DNA from: Gammaproteobacteria bacterium
GTDB lineage: Bacteria > Pseudomonadota > Gammaproteobacteria > SZUA-152
Direction: 5' to 3'
Assembly: GCA_011371455.1 (NCBI GenBank)
Contig: DRQN01000164.1
Coordinates: 1 to 41,196 of the forward strand
DNA length: 41,196 nt
This document shows positions 1,972 to 38,717 of this stretch, one piece after another. Numbering within the stretch: the stretch's first letter is position 1; each line of letters starts with the position of its first letter. The position numbers and the translations under genes are program-made. The notes under the pieces are model-generated. The model saw only the letters and a program-made list of their open reading frames with translations, made no database searches and was not told the origin of the DNA.

Positions 1972-1980
1972 GATCGTTCC

Positions 1981-2736
1981 TCAGAAGCCCAGGCTCGACA
2001 GCAGGTCGTCCACTTCGTCCTGGCCGGAGACCAGATCGCTTTTTCCCACCCCGGGAATGGCCGGACCCGCCGCTTCGATATCGGGCTTCTTGTCTTTGCC
2101 CGCATCCTTTTCTTCAGTATTTGAAAATTTTGTGCCGGTAAGGCGCACCAGCTCCACCAGGTTGCCTTCCACCTCTTCCACCAGTTCGATGACGCGGGTG
2201 ATGATCTGTCCGGTGAGGTCCTGGAAGTCCTGCGCCATCATGATGTCGTTGAGGCCCTCACGGATGTCGGAGGTGTCCTGCTCGGCATCGGTAAAGAAGG
2301 CCTCCAGCTCGGCGCTCAGTTCACGAAACTGGTCGACGCTCATTTCCCGGCGCTTGAAGTTCTGCCAGCTGGTACCCAGTCTGGCGATGCGCTCGGACAA
2401 TTGATCGCACTTGGGCAGGGTCTTTTCCACCGCATTCAGGGAGCGATCGGCCGCCTGGCGGGTGAGGGTGATGACGTAGCGCAGCCGGGCGCGCGCATCG
2501 GGAATCTCGTCTTCGGTCAGTTCATCGAGGCGGGTTTCCTGGGCGAAAGAATTCAGTGCGTCGTGCAACTGGCGGGTCATCTTGCCGACTTCGTGGTAGA
2601 TGCCCTCTTCGCGCGCGGTGTTGATGAGGTTGAGCAGGTTGGTCACCTGCGCCTCGTTGCCGGCCTGCATCTCACGCACCAGCTCTTCGGCATGGGCGAT
2701 GATGCCGGCGTTGACTGCGGTGGTTTCCGTCGCCAT
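1981..2736 (-). CDS. cheZ: CheY-P phosphatase CheZ
   Basis: 251 aa. The acidic C-terminal peptide (SGQDEVDDLLSSLGF) is typical of the CheZ CheY-binding tail. The gene lies between cheY and cheA. Confidence 0.9.
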   Translation of the reverse strand: MATETTAVNAGIIAHAEELVREMQAGNEAQVTNLLNLINTAREEGIYHEVGKMTRQLHDALNSFAQETRLDELTEDEIPDARARLRYVITLTRQAADRSLNAVEKTLPKCDQLSERIARLGTSWQNFKRREMSVDQFRELSAELEAFFTDAEQDTSDIREGLNDIMMAQDFQDLTGQIITRVIELVEEVEGNLVELVRLTGTKFSNTEEKDAGKDKKPDIEAAGPAIPGVGKSDLVSGQDEVDDLLSSLGF

Positions 2737-2739
2737 GTC

Positions 2740-3132
2740 TCAGCCCCCTGCGTCGATACGTTCAAAGATCTTGTCGATCTTTTCCTTCAGGGTCTGCGCC
2801 GTGAAGGGCTTGACGATGTAGCCGTTGACGCCGGCCTGGGCGGCCTCGATGATCTGCTCGCGTTTCTGTTCGGCGGTCACCATCAGCACCGGCAGGCTGG
2901 CCAGTTCGGCGTCGGCCCTGACGGCCTTGAGCAGGTCGATGCCCTGCATGCCGGGCATGTTCCAGTCGGTAACGAGAAAGTCGAAACCACCGGCCTGGAG
3001 CATCGGCAGCGCCGTGAGGCCGTCGTCGGCCTCCTGGGTGTTGGAAAAACCCAGGTCCCTGAGCAGATTCTTGATAATCCGCCGCATCGTGGAAAAATCG
3101 TCCACGATGAGGATTTTCATGTTCTTGTCCAA
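2740..3132 (-). CDS. cheY: Chemotaxis response regulator CheY
   Basis: 130-aa single receiver domain with [23 protein letters not shown] (phospho-Asp) and YIVKPF motifs. It lies immediately downstream of fliA. Confidence 0.95.
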
Positions 3133-3180
3133 GGCGTCCTCCGCGCTTGCTGATGGTTGATGCGGCTGGGCGGCGGGCGC

Positions 3181-14280: not shown

Positions 14281-15312
14281 ATGTCACACCACTACCCCCT
14301 TCTGGGCCTTGGCCTGGCCCTTGGCCTCTACGCATCCCCTTCCGTCGCGGACTTCGCGCATTTCCAGGCATTACCGCAGGCGGTACAGCAACCGGCGGAC
14401 AATCCCTCCAGCGCGGAAAAAATCCGCCTCGGCAGAAAGCTGTTCTTCGACCCCGCCCTGCTGGGCGCGGACAGTCGCCTGTCCTGCAACAGCTGTCACA
14501 ACCTGGCCACGGCCGGGGTGGATGGCAAGGCGGTCTCTCATGGCCAGCACGGGCGCCACACCTACCGCTCGACGCCAACCCTGTGGAACATCGGTTTTCA
14601 GACCGTGTTGTACTGGGATGGCCGCAGCCCCAGCCTGGAGGCCCAGGCCCTGGATCACCTGCGCGACCCGGTGATTTCAGACAACGCCCATCTGGGCGCC
14701 ATGGTGCAACGGCTGTACGACTCGGCAGATTATCGGCGGGCCTTCGCGGCCGCCTTCCCCGGCGAGGACGCGGTATCCGCCGACAACGTGGCGCGCGCCC
14801 TGGCCAGCTTCCAGCGCAGCCTGCTGAGCCCCGACAGCCCCTTCGACCGCTACATCCGCGGCGACGAAGACGCCCTTTCCGCGCGCGCCAAGCGCGGCAT
14901 GCGCCTGTTCAACGACAGCGGCTGCGTGTCCTGTCACTTCGGCGTCAACTTCGCCGGCCCGGCGCCTGGCCCGGCCATGGGCCCGGGTGACGGCTTCTAC
15001 GAACTGTTCCCCAACCACCTCGGCAGCCAATACGACAGCCAATACCGGCTGGCGGATGATCTGGGACGCTTCGAGGCGACGGGCAATCTATGGGAAAAAC
15101 ATCTGTGGCGGATGCCGATCCTGCGCAACATCGCCGAGACCGCGCCCTATTTTCACAATGGCCGGGTAAAGACCCTGGACGAGGCGGTGCGAGTGATGGC
15201 GAAGACTCAGCTGAGACTGGAATTCAGCGAGGCGGAAGTGCAAGACATCGTGGCCTTTCTGCGAAGCCTGACGGGAAGGATGACGCTGCCGGCGGAGGGG
15301 GCTGGGGACTGA
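14281..15312 (+). CDS. Periplasmic di-haem cytochrome c peroxidase (CCP/MauG family)
   Basis: 343 aa with a signal peptide (LLGLGLALGLYASPSVA) and two CxxCH haem motifs (CNSCH, CVSCH). CCP blocks are present: LGRKLFFDP, WDGR, FDRY, PILRNIAETAPYFHNG. A GGAG RBS sits 7 nt upstream. The stop codon lies inside the first heptamer repeat units. Confidence 0.87.
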   Translation: MSHHYPLLGLGLALGLYASPSVADFAHFQALPQAVQQPADNPSSAEKIRLGRKLFFDPALLGADSRLSCNSCHNLATAGVDGKAVSHGQHGRHTYRSTPTLWNIGFQTVLYWDGRSPSLEAQALDHLRDPVISDNAHLGAMVQRLYDSADYRRAFAAAFPGEDAVSADNVARALASFQRSLLSPDSPFDRYIRGDEDALSARAKRGMRLFNDSGCVSCHFGVNFAGPAPGPAMGPGDGFYELFPNHLGSQYDSQYRLADDLGRFEATGNLWEKHLWRMPILRNIAETAPYFHNGRVKTLDEAVRVMAKTQLRLEFSEAEVQDIVAFLRSLTGRMTLPAEGAGD

Positions 15313-15614: not shown

Positions 15615-15698
15615 CACTCGGCACTCAGCACTCAGCACTCAGCACTCAGCACTCAGCACTCAGCACTCAGCACTCAGCACTCAGCACTCAGCACTCAG
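15615..15698. repeat. Heptanucleotide microsatellite block 2: 12 tandem copies of CACTCAG (the first is CACTCGG)
   Basis: It abuts block 1 directly. The unit is a 5/7 reverse-complement of the block 1 unit (CTGAG pairs with CTCAG). It ends 9 nt before the stop of the convergent STAS gene. Confidence 0.97.
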
Positions 15699-15707
15699 AA
15701 AAAGACA

Positions 15708-16010
15708 TCAGGTCAGGGTGAACATCTTGTCCAGGTTGGAGATGGACAGCACCTTGCGCACCTCCGGGCTGCAGTTCTGCAGACGGATGTCGGCGGACGC
15801 CTCGCCGGCGAATTCGCGCAACAGCAGCAGCATACCCATGGCCGAGCTGTCCATGAAGGTGGTCTGGCTCAGGTCGATGACGAACCGGGTGTCGGGGGGC
15901 AGGTTCCGGTAGGCGTCACGGAACTCTGCATGCAGGCTGAAATCGAAGCGGCCGGCGATGATAATATCCAGCTGATCGCCTTCCTCGGAAAGCCGTGTCG
16001 TAATGCCCAT
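15708..16010 (-). CDS. STAS-domain protein (SpoIIAA-like anti-sigma-factor antagonist fold); last gene of the second che cluster
   Basis: 100 aa with a SpoIIAA-type motif (VIDLSQTTFMDSSAMGMLLLL) that retains the phosphorylatable Ser position. A double AAGGAG RBS lies upstream. Confidence 0.75.
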   Translation of the reverse strand: MGITTRLSEEGDQLDIIIAGRFDFSLHAEFRDAYRNLPPDTRFVIDLSQTTFMDSSAMGMLLLLREFAGEASADIRLQNCSPEVRKVLSISNLDKMFTLT

Positions 16011-16126
16011 ACTCCTTGTCTCCTTGCTGCTGACGGGCCGCTATTTCATGCGACGTATTTTGCTGGCCCCGATATTACCATCATAGCCGCGCTGTCCCGA
16101 GTCGAATTTTCCCCGGGCGCGGGCCG

Positions 16127-17203
16127 TCAGCCTTTCAAGCGACGCAGAATGTGCTGCGGAATCCTGTTCAGCGAAAGCACGTCGTCCACGCAACCCAGCT
16201 TGACCGCCTCGCCCGGCATGCCCCACACCACGCTGCTCTTTTCGTCCTGGGCGATGGTTGGCGCGCCGGCCTCCTTCATTTCCAGCATGCCCCGCGCACC
16301 GTCGTCGCCCATGCCGGTCAGCAGCACGGCCATGGCGTTCGAGCCCACGTTCTGCGCCACCGAGCGGAACAGCACGTCCACCGAGGGTTTGTGCCGGTTG
16401 ACCGGCGGCCCGTCACTGAGCCGGCAGATGTAACGCGCGCCGTCCCGCTCCACCATCAGGTGCTGGCTGCCGGGGGCGATATAGGCATGACCGGTGACGA
16501 TCTGCTGCCCGTCCTCGGCCTCGCACACCGTCATCGCCGATATACCGTCCATGCGTCTGGCAAAGGGGGCGCTGAAGGCCTCGGGGATGTGCTGGGTGAT
16601 CACCGTCCCCGGGGTATCCGCCGGCAGGTGCATGAGCACTTCCTTGATGGCCTCGGTGCCGCCGGTGGAGGCGCCGATGGCGAGGATGCGATCGGTGGTG
16701 CGGAAATGGTGCGCCGGCGCCGCTTTACCGAGCACCGCATCGGCCGTGCGCCGCTCCGCCACCTCGCCGGCAGCGGACGGATTGCGCGCCAGGGCCTGCA
16801 CCCGCGCGCCGGCCGCCGTGCGCACCTTGGTGACGATCTCTTCGGCATAGTCGTCCAGGGTATGGGCGATGTCCGTCTTGGGCTTGGAAACGAAATCCAC
16901 CGCACCCAGTTCCAGCGCCTGAAAGGTGATATCCGCGCCCTTCTCGGTGAGGGTCGAGACCATCACCACCGGCATCGGGCGCAGGCGCATGAGATTGCGC
17001 AGGAAGGTGACGCCGTCCATGCGCGGCATCTCCACATCCAGGGTCAGCACGTCCGGGTTCAGCGACTTGATGCGCTCGCGCGCCACATAGGGATCCTGCG
17101 CGGTGCCGACCACCTCGATATCCGGGGCGGAATTCAGCATCTCGGTCAGCATCTGCCGCACCAGGGCGGAGTCGTCGACGATCAGAACCTTGATCTTTTT
17201 CAT
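16127..17203 (-). CDS. cheB: Chemotaxis methylesterase/deamidase CheB (receiver plus CheB_methylest domains)
   Basis: 358 aa with receiver motifs ([26 protein letters not shown]) and catalytic-domain blocks ([16 protein letters not shown]). Confidence 0.93.
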
Positions 17204-17215
17204 TTTCTTCCTTGC

Positions 17216-17863
17216 TCAGAACAGGTCGATTTCACCAGCTACCGGCTGCTGATCGATGGTCTTCATGTAGGCCGTTTCACGCTCGGCCACGGTACGGTTG
17301 TGCATGTTGCGCAGCTTTTTCACCCGCACCAGACCGGTATGGGGATGAAACAGCACCTTACGCGGATAGATATCACCCACGTCCTCGGCCACCAGCTTCA
17401 ACCCTTCGAGGCGCAGGTATTCCTCGACAAAATGGATGTTGCGCTCACCCACGTTGCTGCTCATGGTCTTGCTCAACACCTGGCCACCGCCGAAGATCTT
17501 GACCTCCAGGTTCTTGCGCGAACCGCCGTGTTTGAGGATCTCGTTGATCAGCAATTCCATGGCGTAATTGCCATAGCGGGTGGACAGGCCGCCGTCCGAG
17601 TCCCAGCTGCCGGTGCCGGACGACAATGGCAGCATGAAGTGATTCATGCCGCCGACCTTGAAGATGGGATCGCGCACGCAGGCCGAGACGCAGGAGCCCA
17701 GCACCGTCGTGATCACCTCATCCTCAGTGGTCACATAGACCTCGCCGGGCAGGATCTTGGCGGCGTACTTGTCGTTAGTCTTGTCCCAGTAGCGCTTGAT
17801 GCCCTCGAAGCCTTCCAGGGCCGGCGGCATGTCGATGGGGGCTTTTGTTTTCGGCAAGGCCAT
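17216..17863 (-). CDS. cheD: Chemoreceptor glutamine deamidase CheD
   Basis: 215 aa with the CheD signature TVLGSCVSACVRD...GGMNHFMLP. Confidence 0.9.
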   Translation of the reverse strand: MALPKTKAPIDMPPALEGFEGIKRYWDKTNDKYAAKILPGEVYVTTEDEVITTVLGSCVSACVRDPIFKVGGMNHFMLPLSSGTGSWDSDGGLSTRYGNYAMELLINEILKHGGSRKNLEVKIFGGGQVLSKTMSSNVGERNIHFVEEYLRLEGLKLVAEDVGDIYPRKVLFHPHTGLVRVKKLRNMHNRTVAERETAYMKTIDQQPVAGEIDLF

Positions 17864-17873
17864 GACGTCCCTC

Positions 17874-18740
17874 TCAATAGACTTTGCGGTAAATGGTTTT
17901 GCCTATCAGCTCGAAACGGTCACTGACCTTGAACAGGGATTCCGAGTGGCCGATGAAAAGATGCCCGCCCACCGGCAGCAGTTCGGCATAACGGTCGAAC
18001 AACACCTTCTGCGTCGGCTTGTCGAAATAGATCACCACGTTGCGGCAAAAGATAAAATCCAGCGGCCCGCTGATAGGCCATTCCTGCATCAGGTTCAGCT
18101 GGCGAAAAACGATCGGTTCACGCAGCGACGGTCGCACCTGCACCATGCCTTCGTTATCGCCCTTGCCGCGCAGGAACCAGCGCCGCAGACGCTCGGGAGA
18201 GATGCCATTGACCCGCTCCTGGGCATAGACGCCGCGCTGCGCCTTGGCCACCACGTCGGAATCCAGGTCGGTGGCGAGGAGGCGCGTGTCCCAGCCCTGC
18301 TCCGGCAGGGTCTCGCGCAGCACCATGGCGATGGAATAGGGCTCCTCACCGGTGGAACAACCCGCCGACCAGCAGCGCAGACGACGATCCGCCTTGCGCT
18401 GCATCAGTTCCGGCAACAGCGTGTCGCGCAGATATTCGAAGTGATGGTTCTCACGGAAGAACGAGGTCAGATTGGTGGTAATGGCATTGATGAAATTGAC
18501 CAGCTCGCCATCGTCCCCCGCCTTCAGCAACGCGCAGTAGTCGGCAAAGTGCTCCAGTCCCAACTGGCGCAGGCGCCGGCTGAGGCGGCTGTAAACCAGG
18601 TTGCGCTTGGCGTCGTTGAGCACGATACCGGTCTTTTCCGCCACCAGCCGGCGAATGAATTCAAAATCGGCATCGGTGAAGATGAACTCGCGCTCACCGC
18701 TCGAAACCCTTTCCTTGCGTGCCGCACTGGCCTGGGACAT
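17874..18740 (-). CDS. cheR: Chemotaxis methyltransferase CheR
   Basis: N-terminal helical domain plus SAM-binding domain (CWSAGCSTGEEPYSIAM, FCRNVVIYFD). I prefer the internal ATG at 18740 (MSQASAARKE), which has a GAGGAA RBS. The ORF-track start at 18785 would overlap the MCP gene by 16 nt. Confidence 0.9.
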   Translation of the reverse strand: MSQASAARKERVSSGEREFIFTDADFEFIRRLVAEKTGIVLNDAKRNLVYSRLSRRLRQLGLEHFADYCALLKAGDDGELVNFINAITTNLTSFFRENHHFEYLRDTLLPELMQRKADRRLRCWSAGCSTGEEPYSIAMVLRETLPEQGWDTRLLATDLDSDVVAKAQRGVYAQERVNGISPERLRRWFLRGKGDNEGMVQVRPSLREPIVFRQLNLMQEWPISGPLDFIFCRNVVIYFDKPTQKVLFDRYAELLPVGGHLFIGHSESLFKVSDRFELIGKTIYRKVY

Positions 18741-18769
18741 GGTCACTCGTTCCTCGTTCGTGGCGTGGC

Positions 18770-21298
18770 TCAGAATTCTTCCCACTCACCGTCGTCATCC
18801 ACCGCTGGACGTGGAGCCGGACGGGAAACCGCCGCGGGCCTCGCCGCTGGCCGGGGAGCGGGCGCGGGAGGGCTCTCCGCCTGCGGCTGCGGGGCCGGTG
18901 TGCGCGGCGCCGGCTGATGGCTCTCGTCGAGGCGGAAGAAGGCCATGCGCTGACTCATGTCGCGCGCCTGGTCGTCGAGGGACTCGGCGGCGGCCGCGGC
19001 CTCTTCCACCAGCGCCGCATTCTGCTGGGTCACCTCATCGAGCTGGGTGATGGCCTTGTTGATCTGCTCGATACCGATGGACTGCTCCTGGCTGGCGGCG
19101 GCGATCTCGGCGACGATGTCGCTGACCTTTTTCACCGAACCAACAATTTCCGTTAGCGTCTCGCCGGAGCGGTCCACCAGCTTGCTGCCCTCACCGACCT
19201 TTTCCACGCTGTCACTGATCAGCGACTTGATTTCCTTCGCCGCCGAGGCGCTGCGCTGGGCCAGGTTACGCACTTCGGAGGCCACCACCGCGAAGCCCCG
19301 GCCCTGCTCACCGGCGCGCGCCGCCTCCACCGCCGCATTCAGCGCCAGCAGGTTGGTCTGAAAGGCGATCTCGTCGATGACGCCGATGATGTCGGCAATC
19401 TTCTTGCTCGAACTGTTGATCTCGGCCATGGCATCCACTGCCTGTTGCACCACGCTGCCGCCCTGCTCCGCCTGGTCGCGAGCGCCATTGGCCAGTTGAT
19501 TGGCCTGACGCGCGTTGTCGGCGTTCTGCTTCACCGTCGAGGTCAGCTGCTCCATGCTGGAGGCGGTCTCCTCCAGCGAGGAAGCCTGTTCCTCGGTGCG
19601 CTGACTGAGGTCGGTATTGCCCTGGGATATCTCGCTGGCCGCCGACGTAATGCTCTCGGTGGCGACACGAATGCCGCCCACGGTCTCTTGCAGATTCTTG
19701 ACCGAGGTATTGACCGCATCACTCAACACCGCGAACTCACCCTGATAGTCACTACGGGCCAGTTGCGTCAGATCGCCCTCGGCGAGGCGGGTCATGACGC
19801 TGGAGATATCAGTGATCGGTTCGACGATGGCGTCCAACATGCTGTTTATGCCTTCGCCGAGGGTGCGGATGAAGCCTTGATAGCTCTCCACGTCCAGCCG
19901 CTGACCCAGATCGCCACGGGCGGCGGCGGCAATCATCTCCGCCAGCGCCCGTTCGGCCGCCTTCTGCTCGGTGATGTCGCGCCACTCCACCATATTGCCC
20001 ATGTACTTGCCCTGACCGTCGAGCACCGCCGTGGCATTGACCTCGAATTCCAGGTCCGCCACCTTGATCTCGGCCCTGGCCGGCAGGCGCGAGGGGTCAC
20101 CCAGCAGGGCTCGCTGATGAGCGGGGTTCTTGTGGAACATGTCGATATTCTTGCCCACCAGATTGTGCGCATCGAAACCGGGGAAGCGTTCGCGCAGCAC
20201 CTCCTGACGCGCCGCCATCATCTTTACCACCGCCGGATTGACGTAGGTGATATTGAGATCTTCGTCACACAGCATGAGATTGGACTGGGCGCCATCGATG
20301 GCCGACTGCAGGCGCTCCACCTCACGCGCCGCTTTGCGTTCCTCGGTAACGTCTTTCCACTGCACGGCATAGCCCAGGTGGCGGCCGCTGGCGTCGGTGA
20401 GGGGGCGGGTCTGGTGTTCGAAGATGAACCGACCGGGGGTGATCTCGCCGTGGCGCACGTCGTCCGGACCCATGGCGTGGAGGATGCGTTTAATCGCCTC
20501 GGGGTCCTTGTGATAACGATGGATGCTGCCACCCACCACCGAGTCGACGCTGAAGCCGGGCAGATACTGGGCCAGCTCATCTTCCACCGAGGTCAGGGTA
20601 TCGCGCGCCTGTTTGTTGATAAAAACAATATTCTCGTCAGCGTCGGCGATCATGATATTGATGGGCGAATGTTCGAGGATCGAATACATCGCTTCCAGGC
20701 TGTTGAGGGCCTCGCTCGTGCCCATCACCGATTCCATTGCTTTCTTGCTTGCTGCCATCGTCTTCTCCTCCAGGACTTCGTCCGCCGACAGCATGGTGGC
20801 CGCCACGGTATTCAATGCATCACGCCAGGCACCCGCAACCTCATCGGTCCACAGATCACCGGCAAACTCCGCCATCACGTCGAGCAGCGTCTCCGCCACC
20901 GCCGTGTAGTGTTCTCTTTTCGCCCCATAGGCATGGTGTTTTTCACCCAGGCCCAGCAGGGCCTTGCGCAGCTGCGCCGGCTTGCGCAGGCTGTTGACCA
21001 CCAGCTGCAGGGCCGCCAGCAGCTTTTTCTGCTGCTGCGCCGGATCGGCATTGGCGAACAAGGGCCGCACCTCGGGGAAACGTACGAACAATTCTTCGTA
21101 AAAGCGCGCCACCAGGGCCTCGCCCTGCGGCGCCAGGGCGGCAAAGGTCTCTTCCAGCAGGGCAACCGCAAGGCCGTCGCTCTTACGCCGCCGGCGACGA
21201 GGTGCAGACTTCTTCTCCACCAGCGGCTCGACCGGCGCCTCCTCCTTCATCCAGGCCAGCGGGTCAGCCCCTATGGGTGATTTCTTGCGTGTTGCCAT
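18770..21298 (-). CDS. Soluble methyl-accepting chemotaxis protein: basic N-terminal peptide, globin, PAS, PAS, HAMP, MA domain, Pro-rich tether and C-terminal EWEEF pentapeptide (Aer2/McpB-like position)
   Basis: 842 aa with no hydrophobic TM-length segment. The globin region [16 protein letters not shown]...[10 protein letters not shown] resembles Vitreoscilla Hb (FYKNLFAKHPEVRPLF...). Two PAS-like modules carry SIHRYHKDP and [13 protein letters not shown]. The MA signalling core is [35 protein letters not shown]. The C-terminus reads ...[12 protein letters not shown]. Confidence 0.92.
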
Positions 21299-21341
21299 TG
21301 ATCATCTACTCCAGGTTATATTCACCGTGCACGGCCTACTC

Positions 21342-21479
21342 TTTGCCACTGAGACACAGAGGACACAGAGCAGAAAATCCCATGAGAAGATACGGGACAC
21401 TTGTGTCATCGGATGCGAGAAAAACATCGGCACTTTATCCATAAGTTTTTCTCCGTGTCCTCTGTGTCTCTGTGGCAAA
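21342..21479. repeat. 138-bp inverted-repeat (MITE/REP-like) element, family 'TTTGCCACAGAG', copy 1
   Basis: The 29-nt arms TTTGCCACTGAGACACAGAGGACACAGAG (21342-21370) and CTCCGTGTCCTCTGTGTCTCTGTGGCAAA (21451-21479) are complementary at 27/29 positions. The element fills the parA-like/MCP intergenic gap. Confidence 0.7.
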
Positions 21480-21549
21480 CACAACAACTAGCCATTCCAG
21501 CAAGAACTGGCAAAGATGCTGATGATCAGCTGCAGGGTCGCTTCGGATA

Positions 21550-22329
21550 TCAGTGCCATTGCGCGGCCACCATTTCCTCGGCCAGGCGGCGATAGTCTTC
21601 GGCGCCGTGGCTATCGTCCTGGTATTCAAAAATGGTTTCTCCAAAACTGGGGCATTCGGCCAGCGCCACGTTTTCACGGATCGCGGTGTCCAGCAGGCGT
21701 CCCTGGAAATACTCTGCGAGACGCTCGCGCACCTCGCGGGCCAGGCGGCGCTGGGCGTGAAAACGGGTCATCACCACCCGCCGCGGCAAGGGCCGGCGCA
21801 GGGTTTCTTCGACGAAACTCAGGGTCTCCATGAAACGCGACAGGCTGTGCAGGGCCAGGTAGTCGCTGGACACGGGGATCAACAATTCGCTGGCGGCGAA
21901 AAGGGCATTCATACCCAGCAGGCCGGCCGAGGGCGGGCAGTCGATGATCACCGCATCGTAGTGTTCGCCGCAGGCATCGAGGGCGGTGCGCAGGCGCATG
22001 CCGCGCGCCTTGCCGCCTTCGCTGAGGTGTTCGACATTGGCCAGGCCGCGACCGGCGGGCACCAGGTCGAGACCGTCACGGGCACGCAGCCGGTAATCGG
22101 CCAGCGGCGCGCCCTCGAGCAGCACCACGTCCATGCCCGGGCTGGCCGCATCGGCGCCCAGGGCGGTGGTGAGATGGGCCTGGGGATCGAGATCCAGTGC
22201 CAGCACCCGCTGCCGGCCCAGCGCCAGAGCGTGGGCAAGGTTGACGGCGGTGGTGGTCTTGCCCACCCCGCCCTTCTGGTTCATGACCGCGATCACCCGG
22301 CTGACCACATCATTCGTGCCCGACGGCAT
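21550..22329 (-). CDS. ParA/Soj-family ATPase embedded in the che operon (PpfA/ParC-like candidate)
   Basis: 259 aa with a deviant Walker A (MNQKGGVGKTTTAVNLA) and the motifs LDLDPQ and IIDCPPS. Its start overlaps the cheW stop by 20 nt. Confidence 0.85.
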   Translation of the reverse strand: MPSGTNDVVSRVIAVMNQKGGVGKTTTAVNLAHALALGRQRVLALDLDPQAHLTTALGADAASPGMDVVLLEGAPLADYRLRARDGLDLVPAGRGLANVEHLSEGGKARGMRLRTALDACGEHYDAVIIDCPPSAGLLGMNALFAASELLIPVSSDYLALHSLSRFMETLSFVEETLRRPLPRRVVMTRFHAQRRLAREVRERLAEYFQGRLLDTAIRENVALAECPSFGETIFEYQDDSHGAEDYRRLAEEMVAAQWH

Positions 22330-22837
22330 GGTCCATCACCGCCAGCTCGCCGCTGTTGAGCAGGTGATCGATGTCGAGAATGATCACCATGGTTTCATTC
22401 ACCGTGGCCAGGCCCTCGACGAAGTCCACATTGACCACACTGCCGAAATCCGGCGCCGGCTTGAGCGATTCATCCTGCACGTTGTAGACATCGGACACCG
22501 CATCCACCACGATGCCCATCACCCGGCTCTTGTCCTCACGCATCACCTTGAGCACGATCACCACGGTCATGGGTCCGTACTCCACCGGCTCCAGGCCGAA
22601 ACGGCGGCGCAGGTCGATGATCGGCACGATGGTGCCGCGCAGGTTGATCACGCCGCGGATGTAATCCGGGGTATTGGGAATCGGCGTGACCGCATTCCAG
22701 CCCTTGATCTCCTGCACCCGCAGGATGTCCACGCCGTATTCTTCGCCGGCGAGAAGAAAGGTAAGAAACTGGCTGCCATCGACTTCACCGGTGCCGGCCA
22801 GCCCGCTGGCGATCTGTTCTGCTACGTCCATCTGCAA
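22310..22837 (-). CDS. cheW: Chemotaxis coupling protein CheW
   Basis: 175-aa CheW domain (FLTFLLAGEEYGVDILRVQEI...GVINLRGTIVPIIDLR). Confidence 0.93.
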   Translation of the reverse strand: MQMDVAEQIASGLAGTGEVDGSQFLTFLLAGEEYGVDILRVQEIKGWNAVTPIPNTPDYIRGVINLRGTIVPIIDLRRRFGLEPVEYGPMTVVIVLKVMREDKSRVMGIVVDAVSDVYNVQDESLKPAPDFGSVVNVDFVEGLATVNETMVIILDIDHLLNSGELAVMDHAVGHE

Positions 22838-22870
22838 CTCCCGAAAATACCTGTATTAAGCCGCACTGTT

Positions 22871-23155
22871 TATTAACCCGGCGACAATATAGATTATGTT
22901 CAGCCGTCGTGTGCCGCTGCGCAGCAAGGCATCAAAGCGCAGCTGTAGTGGGCCTACCGCAAGCTTTGATAACGCAGTCTGCGCAGCGGCACACGACGGC
23001 CTTTCATCATGAAAACAATCGGTTAGGGACTTCAAGCGTCCCCCAGCTCTGCGTTGTCACTCTTGCCAATGGAACCACCATTGCCGGCGAGTGACGCCTT
23101 GATCTGGAGAACGCTTGAAGTCCTGAACATGATCTATATTGTCGCCGGGTTAATA
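22871..23155. mobile_element. 285-bp non-coding MITE-like insertion at the cheA/cheW junction
   Basis: The 33-bp terminal inverted repeats (22871-22903 and 23123-23155) have one mismatch. Flanking direct repeats are TTAAGCCGCACTGTT (22856-22870) and TTAAGCCGCAGCGCTGTT (23156-23173), i.e. the last codons and stop of cheA are duplicated. Inside are two long hairpins: 22903-23000 with a perfect 22-bp stem, and 23027-23123 with a 13-bp outer stem plus inner stems. Confidence 0.7.
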
Positions 23156-25246
23156 TTAAGCCGCAGCGCTGTTCGCGCGCTTGTGACCGCCGTTCTGCGA
23201 CAGTTCGATGATGCCGCCGATATCGACGATCAGCGCCACCGTGCCATCGCCGAGGATGGTGGCGCCGGAGATGCCGCCCACCTTCTTGAAATTGGTTTCC
23301 AGACTCTTGATCACGACTTGCTGTTGGGCCAGCAGGTCGTCCACCAGCAAGCCGGCCTGTTGGCCGTGCCCTTCCACCACCACCAGCAGACCGTCTTCCA
23401 GGTTGGTGCTGTCCGGCTTGAGGCCGAAGGCGTCGTAGAGACGGATGATGGGCAGGTAGTCGTCGCGCAGTTTGTACAGTTCGGCGCTGCCGGCGATGGC
23501 ATTGACCCGCACCGGTTCCACCTGCAGGGATTCGATGATGGAGACCAGCGGGATGATGAAGGTCTGCTCGCCCACGCGCACCAGCTGGCCGTCGAGTATG
23601 GCCAGGGTCAGGGGCAGGCGAATGGTGAACGTGGAGCCATTGCCCGGACGCGACTCCACGTCGATGGCGCCGCCCAGGGCGGTGATGTTGCGCTTCACCA
23701 CGTCCATGCCAACGCCACGCCCGGACACGTCGCTGACCACCTCGGCGGTGGAAAAGCCGGGCTGGAACAGAAAGTCGAACACCTCGGCGTCGCTGAGATT
23801 GTCACCGCCGCTGGTGAGGCCACGCTCGATGGCCTTGGCGAGGATACGCTCGCGGTTCAGGCCCGCACCGTCGTCGCTGATCTCGATAAGGATGTTGCCG
23901 CCCTGGTGATAGGCATTGAGGTGCACCGTGCCGGTCTCCGGCTTGCCGGCCTGGAGGCGCGCCTCGGGGGTCTCGATGCCATGATCGACGGCGTTGCGCA
24001 CCAGGTGCACCAGCGGGTCGCCGATCTTTTCCATCACCGTCTTGTCCAGCTCGGTCTGCTCGCCGGACATCTTCAATTCGATCTTCTTGCCCAGCTTGCC
24101 GCACAGGTCGTGCACCATGCGCGGGAAGCGATTGAAGGCGAAGCTGATGGGCAGCATGCGGATGCTCATGACGTTTTCCTGCAGCTCACGCGTATTGCGC
24201 TCCAGCTCCGCCAGGCCGTCCTTGAGGCGCTCCACCTTGTCCATGCTGAAATCCTCACCCAGCTGACCTAACATGGATTGGGTGATCACCAGTTCGCCTA
24301 CCAGATTGATCAGGGCGTCCACCTTGTCGATGCCGACACGAATGGAGGAATTCTCGGAGGAAGCGCGGTTCTTGCGCCGCTCGCCCTGGCGGCGATCGCC
24401 CCTGCTGCGGCGTTCCCCGGCCTCGGGCGCGGCCTGCAGCGGCGCAGGGCTGGCGGCTTGCGCCGGGCCATCCGCTGCGGCTTCCGGCGCAGGCGTTTCC
24501 GATGCCGGGATTTCCGCCGCCACCGCGCCATCTCCACCGAGGGGCACGATACTCAGTTCACAATCGCCATCCACCCACTCGAACACTTCGTCGATCTGCT
24601 CGCGGTCGATCTCACCATGCAGGGCAAGCGTCCAGCTCAGGCAGGCCTCCTCGGGTTCCATGTCCACCAGCGCGGGCAGGCCTTCCAGATCCACCTCCAC
24701 CTTCATCTCGCCCATCTCGTCCAGTTCGCGGAACAGGCGCACCACGTCATTGCCGGAGCGCAGCATGTCGGGAAAGGGCTTGAAAACGATCTGCCAGCCG
24801 CTGGCCGCCGTGGCATCGTCCTGCGCCTCCGGCCCGGCCTCGGCCGCTGCCTGCGCCACCGAGCCCAGCATGCGGTCCAGCCCGGCCTTGACCTCGGCGA
24901 CCTGATCGAGATTGATCTCGAAACCTTCCTGGGCGCCGGCCAGCATGTCGCGGATGCAGTCCACGGACTTCAGAAACAGGTCGATGGCCTCCTGGGTGAC
25001 CTCGCGCTCGCCGGCGCGGATCTGGTCCAACAGGGTTTCGACGACGTGGGTAAAATTGCTGATGTCACTGAAGCCAAAGGTAGCGCTGCCGCCCTTGATG
25101 GAATGCGCGGCGCGAAAGATGTTGTCCACTTCCTCGGCGTCGGCCGCACCGGGCTGCATTTCCAGCAGCACCGACTCCATAATGTCCAGTCCCTCAAGGC
25201 TTTCCTCGATGAAGGTGGCCTTGAACTGTTCCATATCGATGGACAT
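23156..25246 (-). CDS. cheA: Chemotaxis histidine kinase CheA (second, Che2-type copy)
   Basis: 696 aa. It has an HPt domain (FRAAHSIKGGSATFGF), a long Ala/Pro/Arg-rich linker with no obvious P2 domain, a P3/HATPase region (HLVRNAVDHGIE, DDGAGL, GRGVGMDVV) and a CheW-like P5 domain. Confidence 0.93.
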   Translation of the reverse strand: MSIDMEQFKATFIEESLEGLDIMESVLLEMQPGAADAEEVDNIFRAAHSIKGGSATFGFSDISNFTHVVETLLDQIRAGEREVTQEAIDLFLKSVDCIRDMLAGAQEGFEINLDQVAEVKAGLDRMLGSVAQAAAEAGPEAQDDATAASGWQIVFKPFPDMLRSGNDVVRLFRELDEMGEMKVEVDLEGLPALVDMEPEEACLSWTLALHGEIDREQIDEVFEWVDGDCELSIVPLGGDGAVAAEIPASETPAPEAAADGPAQAASPAPLQAAPEAGERRSRGDRRQGERRKNRASSENSSIRVGIDKVDALINLVGELVITQSMLGQLGEDFSMDKVERLKDGLAELERNTRELQENVMSIRMLPISFAFNRFPRMVHDLCGKLGKKIELKMSGEQTELDKTVMEKIGDPLVHLVRNAVDHGIETPEARLQAGKPETGTVHLNAYHQGGNILIEISDDGAGLNRERILAKAIERGLTSGGDNLSDAEVFDFLFQPGFSTAEVVSDVSGRGVGMDVVKRNITALGGAIDVESRPGNGSTFTIRLPLTLAILDGQLVRVGEQTFIIPLVSIIESLQVEPVRVNAIAGSAELYKLRDDYLPIIRLYDAFGLKPDSTNLEDGLLVVVEGHGQQAGLLVDDLLAQQQVVIKSLETNFKKVGGISGATILGDGTVALIVDIGGIIELSQNGGHKRANSAAA

Positions 25247-25311
25247 GCGCTAGTTTCCGTATTTCGTGGCAGGGTTCATCTTTCTTACCGGATCATTCAT
25301 TGCATGGCCGG

Positions 25312-25755
25312 CTAGCCGAAAAAACTGCCCAGCGCCTTTTTCAACCAGCCTTTCTTTCTACCAAGAACCTCGTTGGCGTATGGCACATAGTGGCGATCTT
25401 CATTCTTGATGTGGTTGGTCAGCCAGATCTGTAATTCGGACATGAGCTTGCGGGTGACATCCTGCCCCCTTTCATGCTCTTTCTTATAGTTCTGGATATG
25501 CGCGATAAAAGACTCGTGCACTTTTTTGTGCGAGTCGGAAAGCGGGTAGCCCGCCTGAGCCATCAGATCTTCTTCAAAGGCAAAATGGGTCACGGTGTAA
25601 TCAACCAGCCCCATCAAAATCTGCGTCACCTTGTCGTGATCATGATTGCTGTGAGCATCGTGCAATTCATTGATGTAATCCACGATGCGCCGGTGCTGCC
25701 CATCGATCACGTCGATACCGATCGACAGCGAGGAATCCCAGACCCAATAACTCAT
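25312..25755 (-). CDS. Bacteriohemerythrin (single-domain, O2-binding di-iron protein)
   Basis: 147 aa. It starts WDSSLSIGIDVIDGQHRRIV and shows the His/Glu/Asp ligand pattern (H..., HFAFEE, HKKVHESF, NHIKNEDRHY). GC content is visibly lower: about 47-48% in two 60-nt lines I counted, against about 62% in a cheA line. Confidence 0.85.
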   Translation of the reverse strand: MSYWVWDSSLSIGIDVIDGQHRRIVDYINELHDAHSNHDHDKVTQILMGLVDYTVTHFAFEEDLMAQAGYPLSDSHKKVHESFIAHIQNYKKEHERGQDVTRKLMSELQIWLTNHIKNEDRHYVPYANEVLGRKKGWLKKALGSFFG

Positions 25756-25818
25756 CTCTGTTCTCCATTTCCTGTTTCAGCCAACAGGCCCGGTGATTAG
25801 CCATGGCCTGGCTCGCAA

Positions 25819-26181
25819 CTACCCCACGACTTTCTTGATGGTCGCCAGCAATTGTTCCGGATTGAAGGGTTTTACGATCCATCCGGTTGCGCCGGCGGCC
25901 TTGCCTTCCTGTTTTTTGCCCATGCCACCCTCGGTGGTCAACATCAGGATCGGGGTGAACTTGAAGGCCGGCAGGGCGCGCAGTTCGCGCGCCAGGGTGA
26001 TGCCGTCCATGCGCGGCATGTTGACGTCCGAAAGCACCAGGTCGAAGCGCTGCCGCTTGGCCAGATCCAGGGCCGCCTGGCCGTCCGCCGCCTCCGTGAC
26101 CTGATGTCCGGCGCCCCTGAGGGTAAACACCACCATCTGCCGCATCGAGGCGGAATCATCCACCGCTAGAATATTCGCCAT
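25819..26181 (-). CDS. cheY: CheY-like response regulator (second che cluster)
   Basis: 120 aa counted from the internal ATG (MANILAVDDSASMRQ), which has an AGGAGA RBS 7 nt upstream. Receiver motifs are DLVLSDVNMPRMDG and WIVKPF. The longer ORF-track start at 26286 overlaps the upstream gene and has no support. Confidence 0.9.
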   Translation of the reverse strand: MANILAVDDSASMRQMVVFTLRGAGHQVTEAADGQAALDLAKRQRFDLVLSDVNMPRMDGITLARELRALPAFKFTPILMLTTEGGMGKKQEGKAAGATGWIVKPFNPEQLLATIKKVVG

Positions 26182-26198
26182 TTTTTCGTCTCCTGCGC

Positions 26199-26516
26199 CT
26201 AGGCTGCTTTCATCTTCAATGCCAGTATGTCCGCGATGCCCAGCAGCTCCGCAGCACGGCTGAGCGCCGCCGATACGGATGACCACTGCACGTCGATATC
26301 CTGTGAGCGTGCGTCCTGAAAGAACGCCGCCAGCACCTGCAAGGCCGCCGTATCCGCGCGCTCGACGGCGCCGCCGTCCAGGGTCACGGGTTGTTTGGCC
26401 TCCAGCGCTTCGAGCAGATGCGCGCGCAATTCACCCGCCACGGCGATGTCCAGCATCTCGTCGCAGACGATATGGCTCACCGTTTCCGCTTCATTCTCTG
26501 AGGTTTCGTCACTCAC
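26199..26516 (-). CDS. Small STAS-like protein; first gene of the second che cluster (start uncertain)
   Basis: The C-terminal ~85 aa look like a short STAS/MlaB-type domain (LDIAVAGELRAHLLEAL...VTLDGGAVERADTAALQVLAAFF...IDVQW). The ORF-track N-terminus reads through a REP palindrome and the sigma-28 promoter. I therefore use the GTG at 26516; the ATG at 26456 is an alternative. Confidence 0.55.
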   Translation of the reverse strand: MSDETSENEAETVSHIVCDEMLDIAVAGELRAHLLEALEAKQPVTLDGGAVERADTAALQVLAAFFQDARSQDIDVQWSSVSAALSRAAELLGIADILALKMKAA

Positions 26517-26560
26517 CGATTTATCCCGTTGTGGATCACGCCTGTGAATCTCACCACAGC

Positions 26561-26586
26561 TATCGGCAATGGTTTTTAATGCTTTA
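26561..26586 (-). promoter_or_regulatory. Sigma-28 (FliA) promoter for the STAS-cheY-hemerythrin-cheA... operon
   Basis: The minus strand reads cTAAAG-cattaaaaaccatt-GCCGATAG, i.e. TAAA-N15-GCCGATAg against the consensus TAAA-N15-GCCGATAA. It lies about 45 nt upstream of the GTG at 26516. Confidence 0.6.
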
Positions 26587-26604: not shown

Positions 26605-26624
26605 CCTGAATCCGTGGGTTCAGG
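26605..26624. repeat. 20-bp palindromic REP-like element CCTGAATCCGTGGGTTCAGG (copy 1)
   Basis: Exact copy. Its flanks (TGAAATAAG... and ...GTAGGAT) resemble those of the copy at 28682. Confidence 0.8.
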
Positions 26625-26737: not shown

Positions 26738-28117
26738 TCAGGCGAAGGTGTCCAGCAGCCCCTGGCCGATGATCACGGGCGGGGGCCGTTGCGGCGATTC
26801 GTCCTCACCGTCATCGGCCCGCGTTCCGGCGGCAGTGGCAGTGTGTGCAGGCAGACCGGTGTCACTTTCCGCATCCCGCTGCTGGCCGGCAAAGGATTCC
26901 TGCGAGACGCTGGCATCGGCCAGATTCAGGCCCTGCTGCTCGAACATCTCACGCAGGCGCGGCAGGGCGGCATCCAGCGCCTCGCGGGCGGCGGGGTGCT
27001 GAGCGCTGAAACTCACGCTCACTTGCTGCGCCTCCGAGTAGACGATACGCACGTCGATGGGACCGAGGTGGCGGGGGTTGAGCTGGATCTTCGCCTCGCG
27101 GATTTCCTGGTTGGCCAGCCACATCATGCGCTGGCCGAGTTCCGCGGACCAGCCCGGATGGCCCACGCCGGTGTTGATCACCGGGGCCGGCAGAGCGGCC
27201 AGGCCGGCCGGCACCATGGCCCGCGCCTCACCACCGGCACCCGGCAGCACGAAGGCGCCGACCGACAGCTCCGGGGGAGTGGCCGTGGTGGTGCTGTCCG
27301 TGGCCGCCGGCAGGGACGTGCTCAGCGGCCCGGTACCGGCGGGGGCGCGGGAGCTGGCCAGCAGGCGATCGACCTGTTGCTGGAACTGGCGCGACAGGGT
27401 CTCACCACTCAGCGTCTGTTGGATGATCGGTGCTGCCGCGCCACTGCGCAGGGCCTGCTCCGCCGACAGGCCGGCGCTGTGGCCAAGCGGTATCCCGGCC
27501 GCCTCGCCACGGCCATTCAGCCCCAGCGAAGCGGGCCGCTGGCGGGGGTCCGGCAGCGGAGGAATTGCGCCAGGGCCGGGCAACGGCGGGGCCACGGGTG
27601 GCGGCGCCGACGGCACAACCCGCCCATCGCCAGCGGCAGGCCGTTCAGCGAGGGCCGCCCGGGGCGTGGCGTCCAGCGTCGGCGGTGCAAGCGGCACGGC
27701 GGGCAGCGGCGCCGTGGCATCCGCCTGGATACCGGCCTGTGGCACCTCCTCAGGGGGCATGCCGGGCTGCGCCGCCATCGACGGCTTGCCCTCATCCCCG
27801 ACAGCCGGCGAAAGCCCGGTCGGCAGCGGCAGGCCTGACACCGGCGCCACGGCGGCCGCAGCCGCTCCCTGCGGCGGCAAGGGATTGCCGGTTTGTGGCG
27901 AAGGCGCTGCCGATGGCAAACCCTCATCCGCCGCCGACGGCGACTTCGGCGCAGCGGCCACGCTCCCCTTCGCCAGAGGCTCCGCCGCCGGCTGCAGGCG
28001 CTGCGCCAGCATACCGGCAAAGATGCCCTCGGCCGCCGGCGGCGCAGGCGTCACGGGAGTTCCCGGCGTGGGGGCCAGCATCTCGACAGCAGGTGTGATG
28101 AAAGCGGCTTCGGCCAT
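26738..28117 (-). CDS. fliK: Flagellar hook-length control protein FliK
   Basis: 459 aa. The N-terminal two thirds are Pro/Ala-rich. The C-terminus is a Flg_hook domain (WSAELGQRMMWLANQEIREAKIQLNPRHLGPIDVRI...FSAQHPAAREALDAALPRLREMF). Confidence 0.87.
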   Translation of the reverse strand: MAEAAFITPAVEMLAPTPGTPVTPAPPAAEGIFAGMLAQRLQPAAEPLAKGSVAAAPKSPSAADEGLPSAAPSPQTGNPLPPQGAAAAAVAPVSGLPLPTGLSPAVGDEGKPSMAAQPGMPPEEVPQAGIQADATAPLPAVPLAPPTLDATPRAALAERPAAGDGRVVPSAPPPVAPPLPGPGAIPPLPDPRQRPASLGLNGRGEAAGIPLGHSAGLSAEQALRSGAAAPIIQQTLSGETLSRQFQQQVDRLLASSRAPAGTGPLSTSLPAATDSTTTATPPELSVGAFVLPGAGGEARAMVPAGLAALPAPVINTGVGHPGWSAELGQRMMWLANQEIREAKIQLNPRHLGPIDVRIVYSEAQQVSVSFSAQHPAAREALDAALPRLREMFEQQGLNLADASVSQESFAGQQRDAESDTGLPAHTATAAGTRADDGEDESPQRPPPVIIGQGLLDTFA

Positions 28118-38611: not shown

Positions 38612-38717
38612 GGTACCTCGGTAATCTCTCAATTGCGTCTTCTGCACGGGGCATCGACATGGACTATCGACACCCGGCAAAAATTCTTGATGAAAAACGA
38701 GGTTGTGCGATGCCAGT

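Follow-up and report, generated by a model that had tools for sequence, protein, structure and literature searches.

What is a second set of chemotaxis genes, interleaved with genes for O2-binding proteins and a ParA-type ATPase, doing in the middle of a bacterial flagellar locus, and does it amount to a new kind of chemosensory system? These questions are raised by a 41,196-nucleotide (nt) stretch of gammaproteobacterial DNA (GenBank assembly GCA_011371455.1, contig DRQN01000164.1, positions 1 to 41,196), hereafter the window. Eleven open reading frames (ORFs) lie head to tail on its minus strand, from position 26516 down to 15708, and encode, in this order, STAS, CheY, bacteriohemerythrin, CheA, CheW, ParA, a receptor, CheR, CheD, CheB and STAS proteins; their coordinates agree with those of an earlier note on this DNA. 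The region probably encodes a second, complete chemosensory pathway of the F7 (Che2/Aer2) class, which lies between fliK and fliL of an uncultured, Chromatiales/Ectothiorhodospiraceae-like gammaproteobacterium from a marine group and would be transcribed by FliA together with its accessory parts. Judged from sequence and gene order, an F7/Aer2 pathway of ancestral type appears to have come under the flagellar regulon, and it carries a globin-Aer2 receptor with several predicted haems, a ParA/peptide pair and a hemerythrin confined to its clade. The earlier note knew of no described system with this full composition and called its novelty unverified. The exact 11-gene set was indeed not found in the searchable literature. 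The cluster type, however, has been described, and this variant of it is restricted to one lineage; all of its components have precedents, and the locus is a variant of F7/Aer2, not a new kind of system.

Pfam and NCBIfam searches found domains above the curated cut-offs in all eleven proteins, which supports the globin, PAS, hemerythrin, STAS and ParA assignments of the earlier note. Together with the gene order, these matches uphold a core of cheY-cheA-cheW-MCP-cheR-cheD-cheB (MCP, methyl-accepting chemotaxis protein) of the Che2/Aer2 (F7) type, with the hemerythrin gene between cheY and cheA and the ParA gene between cheW and the receptor gene. In order of transcription, all on the minus strand, the genes encode an anti-sigma-antagonist-like protein, STAS1, of 105 amino acids (aa) counted from a GTG start (26199..26516; Pfam STAS_2 52.6 bits, STAS 40.8 bits); CheY (120 aa; 25819..26181; Response_reg 98.9 bits), which is 68-100% identical across related clusters; a stand-alone bacteriohemerythrin (147 aa; 25312..25755; Hemerythrin 69.5 bits, and NCBIfam NF002007 166 bits against a cut-off of 109); an F7-like CheA (696 aa; 23156..25246; Hpt, H-kinase_dim, HATPase_c and CheW domains); CheW (173 aa; 22310..22831; CheW 132.5 bits); a ParA/Soj-type ATPase (259 aa; 21550..22329; AAA_31 141.9 bits, CbiA 77 bits); a soluble Aer2-type receptor (842 aa; 18770..21298; Globin, PAS, HAMP and MCPsignal domains); CheR (288 aa; 17874..18740; CheR 212 bits, CheR_N 67 bits); CheD (215 aa; 17216..17863; CheD 111.6 bits, and NCBIfam NF010013 273 bits against a cut-off of 223); CheB (358 aa; 16127..17203; CheB_methylest 218 bits plus Response_reg); and a second anti-sigma-antagonist-like protein, STAS2 (100 aa; 15708..16010; STAS_2 52.4 bits). 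A transmembrane-like stretch was found in none of the eleven proteins (maximal 19-residue Kyte-Doolittle mean of 1.69, and 1.26 for the receptor). Intergenic gaps are mostly 10-116 nt, and two of them, cheA-cheW (324 nt) and parA-receptor (251 nt), are large because inverted-repeat elements sit in them.

Class, promoter and relatives of the cluster

The class of the cluster was read from several of its parts. By proxy scores, used in place of MiST class models, the cluster CheA reached 533 bits to the F7 CheA of E. coli versus 341 bits to the CheA of T. maritima, whereas the other CheA of the window reached 326 and 336 bits and scores as non-F7-like. The match of the cluster CheA to NCBIfam model PRK10547 amounted to 628 bits, under the cut-off of 793. 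Because these CheA scores coincide with a receptor of 36H length, Aer2-type PAS domains, a GEWEEF tail, the presence of cheD and the absence of cheZ, the cluster most likely belongs to the F7/Aer2 systems. A separate cheY-cheZ-cheA set follows fliA in the same window.

Of the layouts described, 'stage 1' F7, known from V. cholerae and M. alcaliphilum, comes closest: an anti-sigma antagonist gene precedes cheY, another follows cheB, and an F6 system is found elsewhere in the genome (Ortega et al. 2020, PMC7184735). The earlier note had counted the first and last STAS genes among the extras of the locus. Both are STAS genes by Pfam, but this framing is a hallmark of stage 1 F7 (PMC7184735), and since the stage 1 layout has both, they are ancestral parts and not additions. 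The present cluster shares with stage 1 F7 (V. cholerae cluster III, M. alcaliphilum) the order STAS-cheY-cheA-cheW-Aer2-type receptor-cheR-cheD-cheB-STAS, the soluble 36H receptor with PAS-haem domains, the lack of cheZ and the separate cheY-cheZ-cheA genes in the genome. Unlike stage 1 F7, which has two cheW-like genes, it has one cheW plus parA; it also lacks the mcpA-like receptor and the serine phosphatase, and it has gained a globin on the receptor and a hemerythrin gene. STAS1 carries a conserved ERADT motif with Thr at the position of the SpoIIAA phospho-Ser, and the FMDSS of STAS2 aligns with the FMDSSG phospho-site motif of SpoIIAA. Pfam detected no anti-sigma kinase or PP2C phosphatase that could partner the STAS proteins, either in the cluster or elsewhere in the window.

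The FliA promoter consensus of E. coli and Pseudomonas is TAAAG-N14-GCCGATAA. The proposal of the earlier note that a FliA-type promoter stands before the cluster, inside the flagellar locus, holds: a sigma-28 (FliA)-type site, TAAAG-N14-GCCGATAg (TAAAGcattaaaaaccattGCCGATAg; 26561..26586, minus strand), lies about 45 nt upstream of the GTG of STAS1 and agrees with the E. coli/Pseudomonas consensus at 12 of 13 positions, with correct spacing. With a relaxed pattern it is the single match in the 41-kb window, against 0.02 expected, while the strict pattern TAAAG-N14-16-GCCGATAA has no match in the window because the last base of the site is G. The earlier note had started the region at 26586. 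This position belongs to the -35 element of the promoter, and the first gene most likely begins at the GTG at 26516. Both promoter elements are kept upstream of STAS1 in the related loci L008, L009, L004, L035 and L039, and in L004 the spacer between them differs in sequence and is one base longer. Since the hexamers are retained across this diverged spacer, there is good evidence that the site is a functional promoter. It is missing from most related clusters outside a flagellar context. A scan for sigma-70 consensus promoters in front of the cluster gave nothing useful. A terminator-like hairpin, found by consensus scan between the fliK stop and the promoter (26605..26624, minus strand), suggests a transcription-unit boundary.

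To trace the relatives of the cluster, the window proteins were mapped by tblastn onto 75 fetched loci, and genomes were scanned from an 8-sequence globin+PAS1 alignment with two narrow search patterns, with which divergent isolates may be missed. The receptor protein recurs unchanged in one ENA metagenome and in the NCBI metagenome-assembled genome (MAG) GCA_026996595.1. The nearest genomes, several of them from hydrothermal or sediment samples, bear the labels Chromatiales, Ectothiorhodospiraceae or just Gammaproteobacteria. The full 11-gene order, followed by a peroxidase gene and fliL-fliM, is found only in the window's clade, whose receptor globin regions are at least 88% identical (L001, L006, L008, L009, L010 and L014, plus L081 and L082 from metagenomes). 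It is complete in L008 and L009, and holds as far as the contigs reach in L006, L010, L014, L081 and L082. Chance juxtaposition can be dismissed, since several contigs that were assembled independently show the same order. The neighbourhood survey that the earlier note had proposed separates the accessory genes by their reach: hemerythrin occurs only in this clade and ParA in about 20 loci, and STAS1 precedes cheY in most related clusters.

Position next to flagellar genes extends beyond the clade. In L004, whose receptor is 59% identical, the order is fliJ-fliK-STAS-cheY-cheA-cheW-receptor-cheR-cheD-cheB-peroxidase-fliL, without hemerythrin, ParA and the second STAS gene. At least nine loci (L004, L016, L017, L029, L037, L039, L046, L060, L081) have, immediately before STAS1, the fliK C-terminal domain, the only part of fliK conserved in the relatives. 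Many of the relatives that adjoin fliK have no downstream STAS or receiver (REC) genes, L015, L020, L038 and L040 keep the stage 1 tail of MCP-STAS-REC genes after cheB, and some other relatives carry the receptor as an orphan. In L035 and L044 a fliK-like match follows the che cluster downstream instead of preceding it, and STAS1 of L035 has a sigma-28-like site in front of it; apparently, the cluster joined flagellar loci at different points. The 3.7-Mb contig of L003 (GCA_034522055.1) holds a related globin-Aer2 cluster that is laid out differently and includes its own CheZ, in the order PAS-GGDEF-EAL, cheA, cheW, receptor, parA, a 168-aa STAS, cheR, cheD, cheB, cheY, cheZ. The label 'Kaarinaea lacus' attached to L004 (GCA_975852575.1, CDLCYU010000044.1) denotes a cyanobacterium (Nostocales) in the NCBI taxonomy, and the name is not used here. 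This contig probably comes from an associated bacterium or was mis-binned, because it carries a proteobacterial-type flagellar locus.

The flagellar setting bears on a first alternative, in which the cluster is a stress or stationary-phase pathway whose STAS partner switch acts on a sigma factor, and its position is incidental, comparable to V. cholerae cluster III and S. oneidensis Che1. V. cholerae cluster III is RpoS-dependent (PMC7534058), the che1 locus of S. oneidensis encodes CrsR/CrsA, which control RpoS (PMC9855816), and the literature has yet to settle what Aer2/F7 does in P. aeruginosa, V. cholerae and Shewanella (PMC7184735, PMC7534058, PMC9855816). The STAS genes flank our cluster as they do in stage 1 F7 (PMC7184735), and STAS2 keeps the SpoIIAA-type FMDSS phospho-site, as such a switch would lead one to expect. 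Against this stand the conserved sigma-28 promoter and the fliK-fliL position, which set the cluster apart from the RpoS-controlled F7 of V. cholerae, as well as its lack of serine phosphatase, anti-sigma kinase and McpA-like receptor genes and the absence of downstream STAS/REC genes from many fliK-adjoining relatives. We regard a stress pathway as somewhat unlikely.

Our preferred reading, an F7 pathway taken over by the flagellar regulon, would make this locus a natural F7 variant wired to that regulon by its FliA promoter, its fliK-fliL position and its lack of phosphatase output genes. It is therefore predicted that at least some ancestral-type F7 systems control swimming. The variant also hints at how F7 could come to control the motor.

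The globin-bearing receptor

The receptor is built from an N-terminal peptide, a basic linker, a globin domain, two PAS domains (PAS1 and PAS2), a di-HAMP segment, a 36H signalling domain and a terminal GEWEEF. The description given in the earlier note, a soluble receptor with a flavohaemoglobin/Vitreoscilla-type globin in front of two PAS domains, is confirmed by Pfam, by its structural relatives and by the lack of a transmembrane stretch. Its residues 292-842 match the NCBIfam model of Vibrio Aer2 (NF041847) with 755 bits, under the cut-off of 1200. The earlier note had also envisaged a cytoplasmic array. This cannot be concluded, since the Aer2 of V. cholerae, which has no predicted membrane anchor, forms membrane-associated arrays (PMC7534058).

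The globin domain (residues ~44-180; 20759..21169, minus strand; Pfam Globin PF00042, 51.4 bits) is of the flavohaemoglobin (FHb)/Vitreoscilla haemoglobin (VHb) type. Its best solved relatives are FHbs and VHb, and Pfam gave no Protoglobin match in the receptor. Aligned to VHb and FHb, the residues read as Tyr B10, Phe CD1, Gln E7 and His F8 are invariant in 20 diverse homologues. Both PAS domains are of the Aer2 type. In Aer2, the PAS domain has a haem-coordinating His and an O2-stabilising Trp (PMC10107281). In alignments to the structures 3vol, 4hi4 and 6ceq, PAS1 (residues ~204-321; 20336..20689, minus strand) places its YHKDP His and VQWKD Trp opposite FHKNP and VQWTD, and PAS2 (residues ~327-452; 19943..20320, minus strand) keeps the FHKNP His and the VEWRD Trp, so that the haem His and the O2-contact Trp are present in both. 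For PAS2, the alignment scores are 108 bits with 6ceq, the Aer2 PAS of V. cholerae, and 105 bits with 3vol of P. aeruginosa Aer2.

PAS2 and the following ~90 residues, which comprise HAMP, align over 211 residues to 3vol, the PAS-diHAMP construct of P. aeruginosa Aer2. The di-HAMP and kinase-control module (18908..19942, minus strand; Pfam HAMP_2 and HAMP) is of 36H length, because residues 490-797 of the receptor, covering HAMP and the signalling region, align gap-free to residues 217-524 of E. coli Tsr. A Pro/Ala-rich tether leads to the C-terminal pentapeptide EWEEF (18773..18787, minus strand), the protein ending in GEWEEF. V. vulnificus Aer2 likewise ends in EWEEF (PMC10107281). Tests by heterologous expression would be cheap, since in its 36H length and pentapeptide tail the receptor matches others that have worked in the E. 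coli hijack assay, among them Aer2 of P. aeruginosa, V. cholerae and V. vulnificus.

The receptor shares with Aer2 of P. aeruginosa, V. cholerae and V. vulnificus the haem-PAS His and Trp, the di-HAMP, the 36H module and the xWEEF tail, and with V. cholerae Aer2 the two PAS domains in a row. Unlike the known Aer2 proteins, it has an N-terminal FHb-type globin and a ParA-linked N-terminal peptide followed by a basic linker. Its layout is reminiscent of HemAT, in which an N-terminal globin is likewise fused to a soluble MCP signalling domain and presumed to sense O2. The classical globin-coupled sensors represented by HemAT belong to a separate sensor/protoglobin lineage (PMC7475203). Here, in contrast, the globin is of the flavohaemoglobin lineage and is followed by two haem-PAS domains and a di-HAMP in an F7/36H receptor. 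Given this difference in globin lineage, the receptor would resemble globin-coupled sensors in function but not in descent.

Receptors of this kind are not confined to the window. The best 120 database matches to the receptor all combine Globin, PAS and MCPsignal, with three PAS domains in most of them and two or three globins in some. About 50 loci among species-representative genomes, all of them MAGs, carry the globin-Aer2 fusion, which is widespread in uncultured gammaproteobacteria. An experimental study of the fusion was not found in the searchable literature, and an aerotaxis review of 2026 gives no characterised example of a PAS + globin + MCP protein. An in-silico note (Sharma et al. 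2018) reported PAS, a globin-superfamily domain and MCPsignal together in seven proteins from 8,075 complete genomes, three of them gammaproteobacterial, called the combination rare and proposed that it improves O2 sensing. Our receptor resembles these in joining the three kinds of domain in one soluble protein. It differs from the case described there, which has a Bac_globin (truncated) domain and lies in a myxobacterial cluster with another gene set. Some receptor relatives (P0009-P0016, P0024, P0028, P0030 and L052:5209-8610) have 2-3 tandem globins and 3-5 PAS domains and reach up to 1,395 aa; they would make up a family of soluble multi-haem receptors of very large size. A cultured Glaciecola (L061) was set aside as a relative, since its Aer2-like receptor is membrane-bound and has no globin. 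Aer2 receptors with FHb-type globins, one to three per protein, make up a large family of candidate multi-haem sensors that could span a wide O2 range.

The lineage of the globin could also point to a different ligand. If the domain holds an NO- or redox-reactive haem of the FHb type, the receptor would sense NO, nitrosative stress or redox state beside the O2-sensing PAS haems. The globin does fall in the flavohaemoglobin/Vitreoscilla lineage (PF00042; an NO dioxygenase, FHb and VHb are its best matches), its Tyr at B10 and Gln at E7 are characteristic of that lineage, and the classical globin-coupled sensors belong to a different lineage (PMC7475203). The cluster contains, however, no reductase domain or partner, and ligand preference is not readable from sequence; NO or redox sensing by the globin is thus doubtful.

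The ParA and hemerythrin genes

The parA start overlaps the end of cheW by 20 nt, and its product has a KGGVGKT deviant Walker A motif. A PDB search returned a ParA-family protein and Soj of Thermus and H. pylori as the nearest solved structures. Pfam found no ParB-like gene in the cluster. The earlier note had listed ParA as an extra component. It does lie between cheW and the receptor gene, here and in about 20 related loci, but it belongs to a known and common class of che operons: PpfA homologues occur in che operons of 37% of 206 species, usually beside soluble receptors (Hamer et al. 2010, PMC2829493).

New here is that a peptide at the receptor N-terminus co-occurs with the neighbouring ParA gene. 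Receptors of ParA-containing loci begin with a basic stretch followed by G-x-DPLAWM, in the window as KK..G.DPLAWM at residues 1-18 (21245..21298, minus strand), which we picked out as a candidate ParA-activating peptide by its co-occurrence with the adjacent parA. Across 51 loci from related genomes, the motif is present in 18 of the 20 with ParA and in 3 of the 31 without (Fisher exact p = 7.5e-9). One of the two exceptions with ParA reads NPLAWM and the other has parA after the receptor gene, while one of the three motif-bearing loci without ParA is on a contig truncated upstream. In L060, a globin-less receptor beside ParA also starts with MATKKTSKLGFDPLSWM. A single inherited event was rejected as the sole explanation of the link, because loci with and without ParA are interleaved on a neighbour-joining (NJ) tree of CheR-CheD-CheB. 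A short basic peptide at the N-terminus is characteristic of ParA/MinD activators, and for PpfA the receptor TlpT has been proposed in this role (PMC7993993). This precedent, together with the co-occurrence of motif and ParA, suggests that the receptor N-terminus is a ParA-interacting or ParA-activating peptide, and that ParA may position or partition the receptor array. The present pair differs from PpfA-TlpT of Rhodobacter sphaeroides in chemosensory class and operon layout, and a description of the G.DPLAWM motif was not found in the PpfA-TlpT literature searched.

The hemerythrin has a narrower distribution. Its di-iron ligand motifs (H, HxxxE, HxxxH and HxxxxD) are all readable in the sequence. 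In the slot between cheY and cheA, where gaps of 63 and 65 nt enclose it, it is confined to the window's clade at about 90-93% identity (L006, L008, L009, L010, L014, L081, L082) and retained in every clade contig that covers the slot. Homologues outside the clade (82, 75 and 71% identity) stand alone, in unrelated surroundings and away from che clusters. No hemerythrin was found in other globin-Aer2 clusters, whether in the 75 mapped loci, in the neighbourhoods of the homologues or in a metagenome scan; L100 has a distant one (36% identity) beside MCP and cheW genes. Because the slot is filled in this clade only, the outside homologues are solitary and other globin-Aer2 clusters have none, the gene appears to be a recent, clade-specific recruitment of an ordinary bacteriohemerythrin. 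Of the earlier note's claim that up to three kinds of O2-binding module feed one CheA, the part that concerns the receptor's own domains stands. The hemerythrin does not share this support, its closest outside homologues (82-71%) being stand-alone proteins in unrelated contexts.

Precedents for tying such proteins to chemotaxis do exist. In DcrH of Desulfovibrio, a hemerythrin domain is fused to the C-terminus of a membrane MCP (aerotaxis review), and in Methylomonas bhr genes have been noted near che genes. As in both cases, a di-iron O2-binding module is here genetically tied to chemotaxis proteins; unlike DcrH, the module has a gene of its own, placed between cheY and cheA of an F7 operon. 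We also observed that L052 (MAG contig JAOUPJ010000016.1, positions 1157-3820) encodes a CheA with a Pfam Globin domain (63 bits) between its Hpt and dimerisation domains. Similar Hpt-Globin-CheA proteins occur in metagenomes (P0242-P0246, two of them complete at 804 aa), and P0241 combines CheW with globin domains. A recent survey of CheA domains describes CheA as having no input domains and does not mention globins; the globin-in-CheA architecture was not found in it. No CheA-hemerythrin fusion was seen among the top matches.

In one alternative, the hemerythrin would serve as a third, dedicated O2 sensor with a direct effect on the kinase or the receptor, and input would enter at the level of CheA. 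Its position between cheY and cheA, with the 63- and 65-nt gaps, is fixed across several related assemblies, and the CheA of L052 and a few more carry a Globin domain. Muok and co-workers are said to have described in 2019 a stand-alone di-iron protein, ODP, that serves as an O2/Fe sensor for a soluble receptor in Treponema and Thermotoga, which would count in the same direction. Yet this is an ordinary 147-aa protein with no added segment, its 82/75/71% homologues lie outside che clusters, the insertion is limited to one shallow clade, and no CheA-hemerythrin fusion is among the top matches; such a direct sensor is unlikely. Broader still is the proposal that O2-binding proteins act on the pathway both through the receptor and through the kinase and that Aer2/F7 steers swimming in these bacteria, for which the L052 CheA with its Globin domain provides a case of an O2-binding module joined to CheA within the family. 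The operon hemerythrin and the CheA-inserted globin would then be alternative sensory inputs to CheA. If true, kinase-level O2 input would contradict the textbook view of a CheA without input domain, and the flagellar promoter would imply that the Aer2/F7 system steers swimming here. We judge this combined proposal improbable.

Under our preferred reading of a flagellum-linked F7/Aer2 pathway, the parts could work together as follows. FliA would transcribe the cluster together with the late flagellar genes. The soluble receptor would bind O2 (or NO/CO) at up to three haems and signal through the di-HAMP to CheA/CheW, while CheR, tethered at the EWEEF tail, CheB and CheD would adapt it. The F7 CheY could act on either the flagellar motor or the STAS module. 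ParA, stimulated by the receptor's basic N-terminal peptide, would position or partition the receptor array on the nucleoid, as proposed for TlpT-PpfA of Rhodobacter. The two STAS proteins would be inherited F7 parts of a partner-switching output whose kinase/phosphatase partner lies outside the cluster, and the hemerythrin would most likely be an O2-binding accessory, a buffer or a sensor, made in step with the array.

Several points weigh against this reading. The characterised stage 1 and stage 2 F7 systems are linked to RpoS or the stationary phase and are not known to steer the flagellum (PMC7184735, PMC7534058, PMC9855816). The class of the CheA was judged by proxy scores, and the association between ParA and the peptide comes from 51 loci of related genomes with a simple NJ tree. 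The hemerythrin has the length of its non-che homologues and no visible docking extension, and it could be a passenger. The elements in the cheA-cheW and parA-receptor gaps, in turn, could terminate, process, stabilise or split the transcript. That both the hemerythrin and the ParA genes are passengers in permissive intergenic sites, like the MITE-like element (miniature inverted-repeat transposable element) that did insert between cheA and cheW in this strain only, is very improbable: hemerythrin is indeed clade-specific, but it is kept in every clade contig that covers its slot, and ParA has the same position in about 20 loci of scattered lineages, co-varies with the receptor peptide and overlaps cheW with its gene.

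Beyond the F7 pathway as such, the variant defines a simple, testable ParA-receptor peptide pair as well as rare CheA kinases with a built-in globin.

Intergenic repeats and flagellar surroundings

The element in the cheA-cheW gap, found by inverted-repeat analysis, is a MITE-like sequence of 285 bp (22871..23155) that lies directly after the cheA stop. Its 33-nt terminal inverted repeats are 97% complementary, with nested perfect 22-nt inverted repeats, and it is flanked by repeated tgcggcttaata. It occurs only in the window's own strain (L001, L002), being absent from L008, L009 and L014. It is an insertion and not part of the system, and it could affect co-transcription. The element in the parA-receptor gap (21342..21479), upstream of the receptor gene, is an inverted repeat of 138 bp with 34-nt arms (CACAGAGACACAGAGGACAC). 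It is kept at this place in L008, L009 and L014, and a related intergenic copy lies at 40244-40333. The gap folds at -93 kcal/mol (z = -4.6), and the element could be a repetitive extragenic palindromic (REP)-like repeat or a regulatory hairpin. At the Rfam gathering threshold, no known RNA was found in the window.

Downstream of STAS2, a 7-bp repeat array precedes a convergent peroxidase gene. Two tandem arrays abut here, immediately after STAS2: CTGAGGA in 45 copies (15302-15618) and ACTCAGC in 13 copies (15609-15698), the core of the one, CTGAG, being the reverse complement of the core of the other, CTCAG. The two public contigs with the operon (L001, L002) break off within the array, which is absent from L008, L009 and L014. 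The neighbouring gene encodes a di-haem cytochrome c peroxidase (14281..15312, plus strand; Pfam CCP_MauG 162 bits) and is conserved between cheB/STAS2 and fliL in L004, L008 and L014. It seems to have travelled with the che cluster into the flagellar locus, and it may link the cluster to peroxide or micro-oxic physiology.

Apart from the che cluster and the peroxidase gene, which together occupy its fliK|fliL junction, the flagellar locus resembles those of Pseudomonas and Vibrio. The cluster is preceded on its own strand by fliK (26738..28117, minus strand; Pfam Flg_hook), a fliJ-like ORF and a PAS-GGDEF-EAL gene; downstream follow fliL, fliM, fliP, fliR, flhB, flhA, flhF, flhG and fliA, the last at 3181-3921 within the window. 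After fliA comes the cheY-cheZ-cheA (partial) set, the other chemotaxis genes of the window (1..3132, minus strand; Response_reg, CheZ). Further signalling genes flank the flagellar locus at 28705-31602 and 34771-38779, both on the minus strand, and comprise the PAS-GGDEF-EAL gene just upstream of fliJ, a PAS-rich hybrid histidine kinase and a REC-HD-GYP protein. In L004, an EAL gene occupies the same place upstream of fliJ. This suggests cyclic di-GMP control close to the motility genes.

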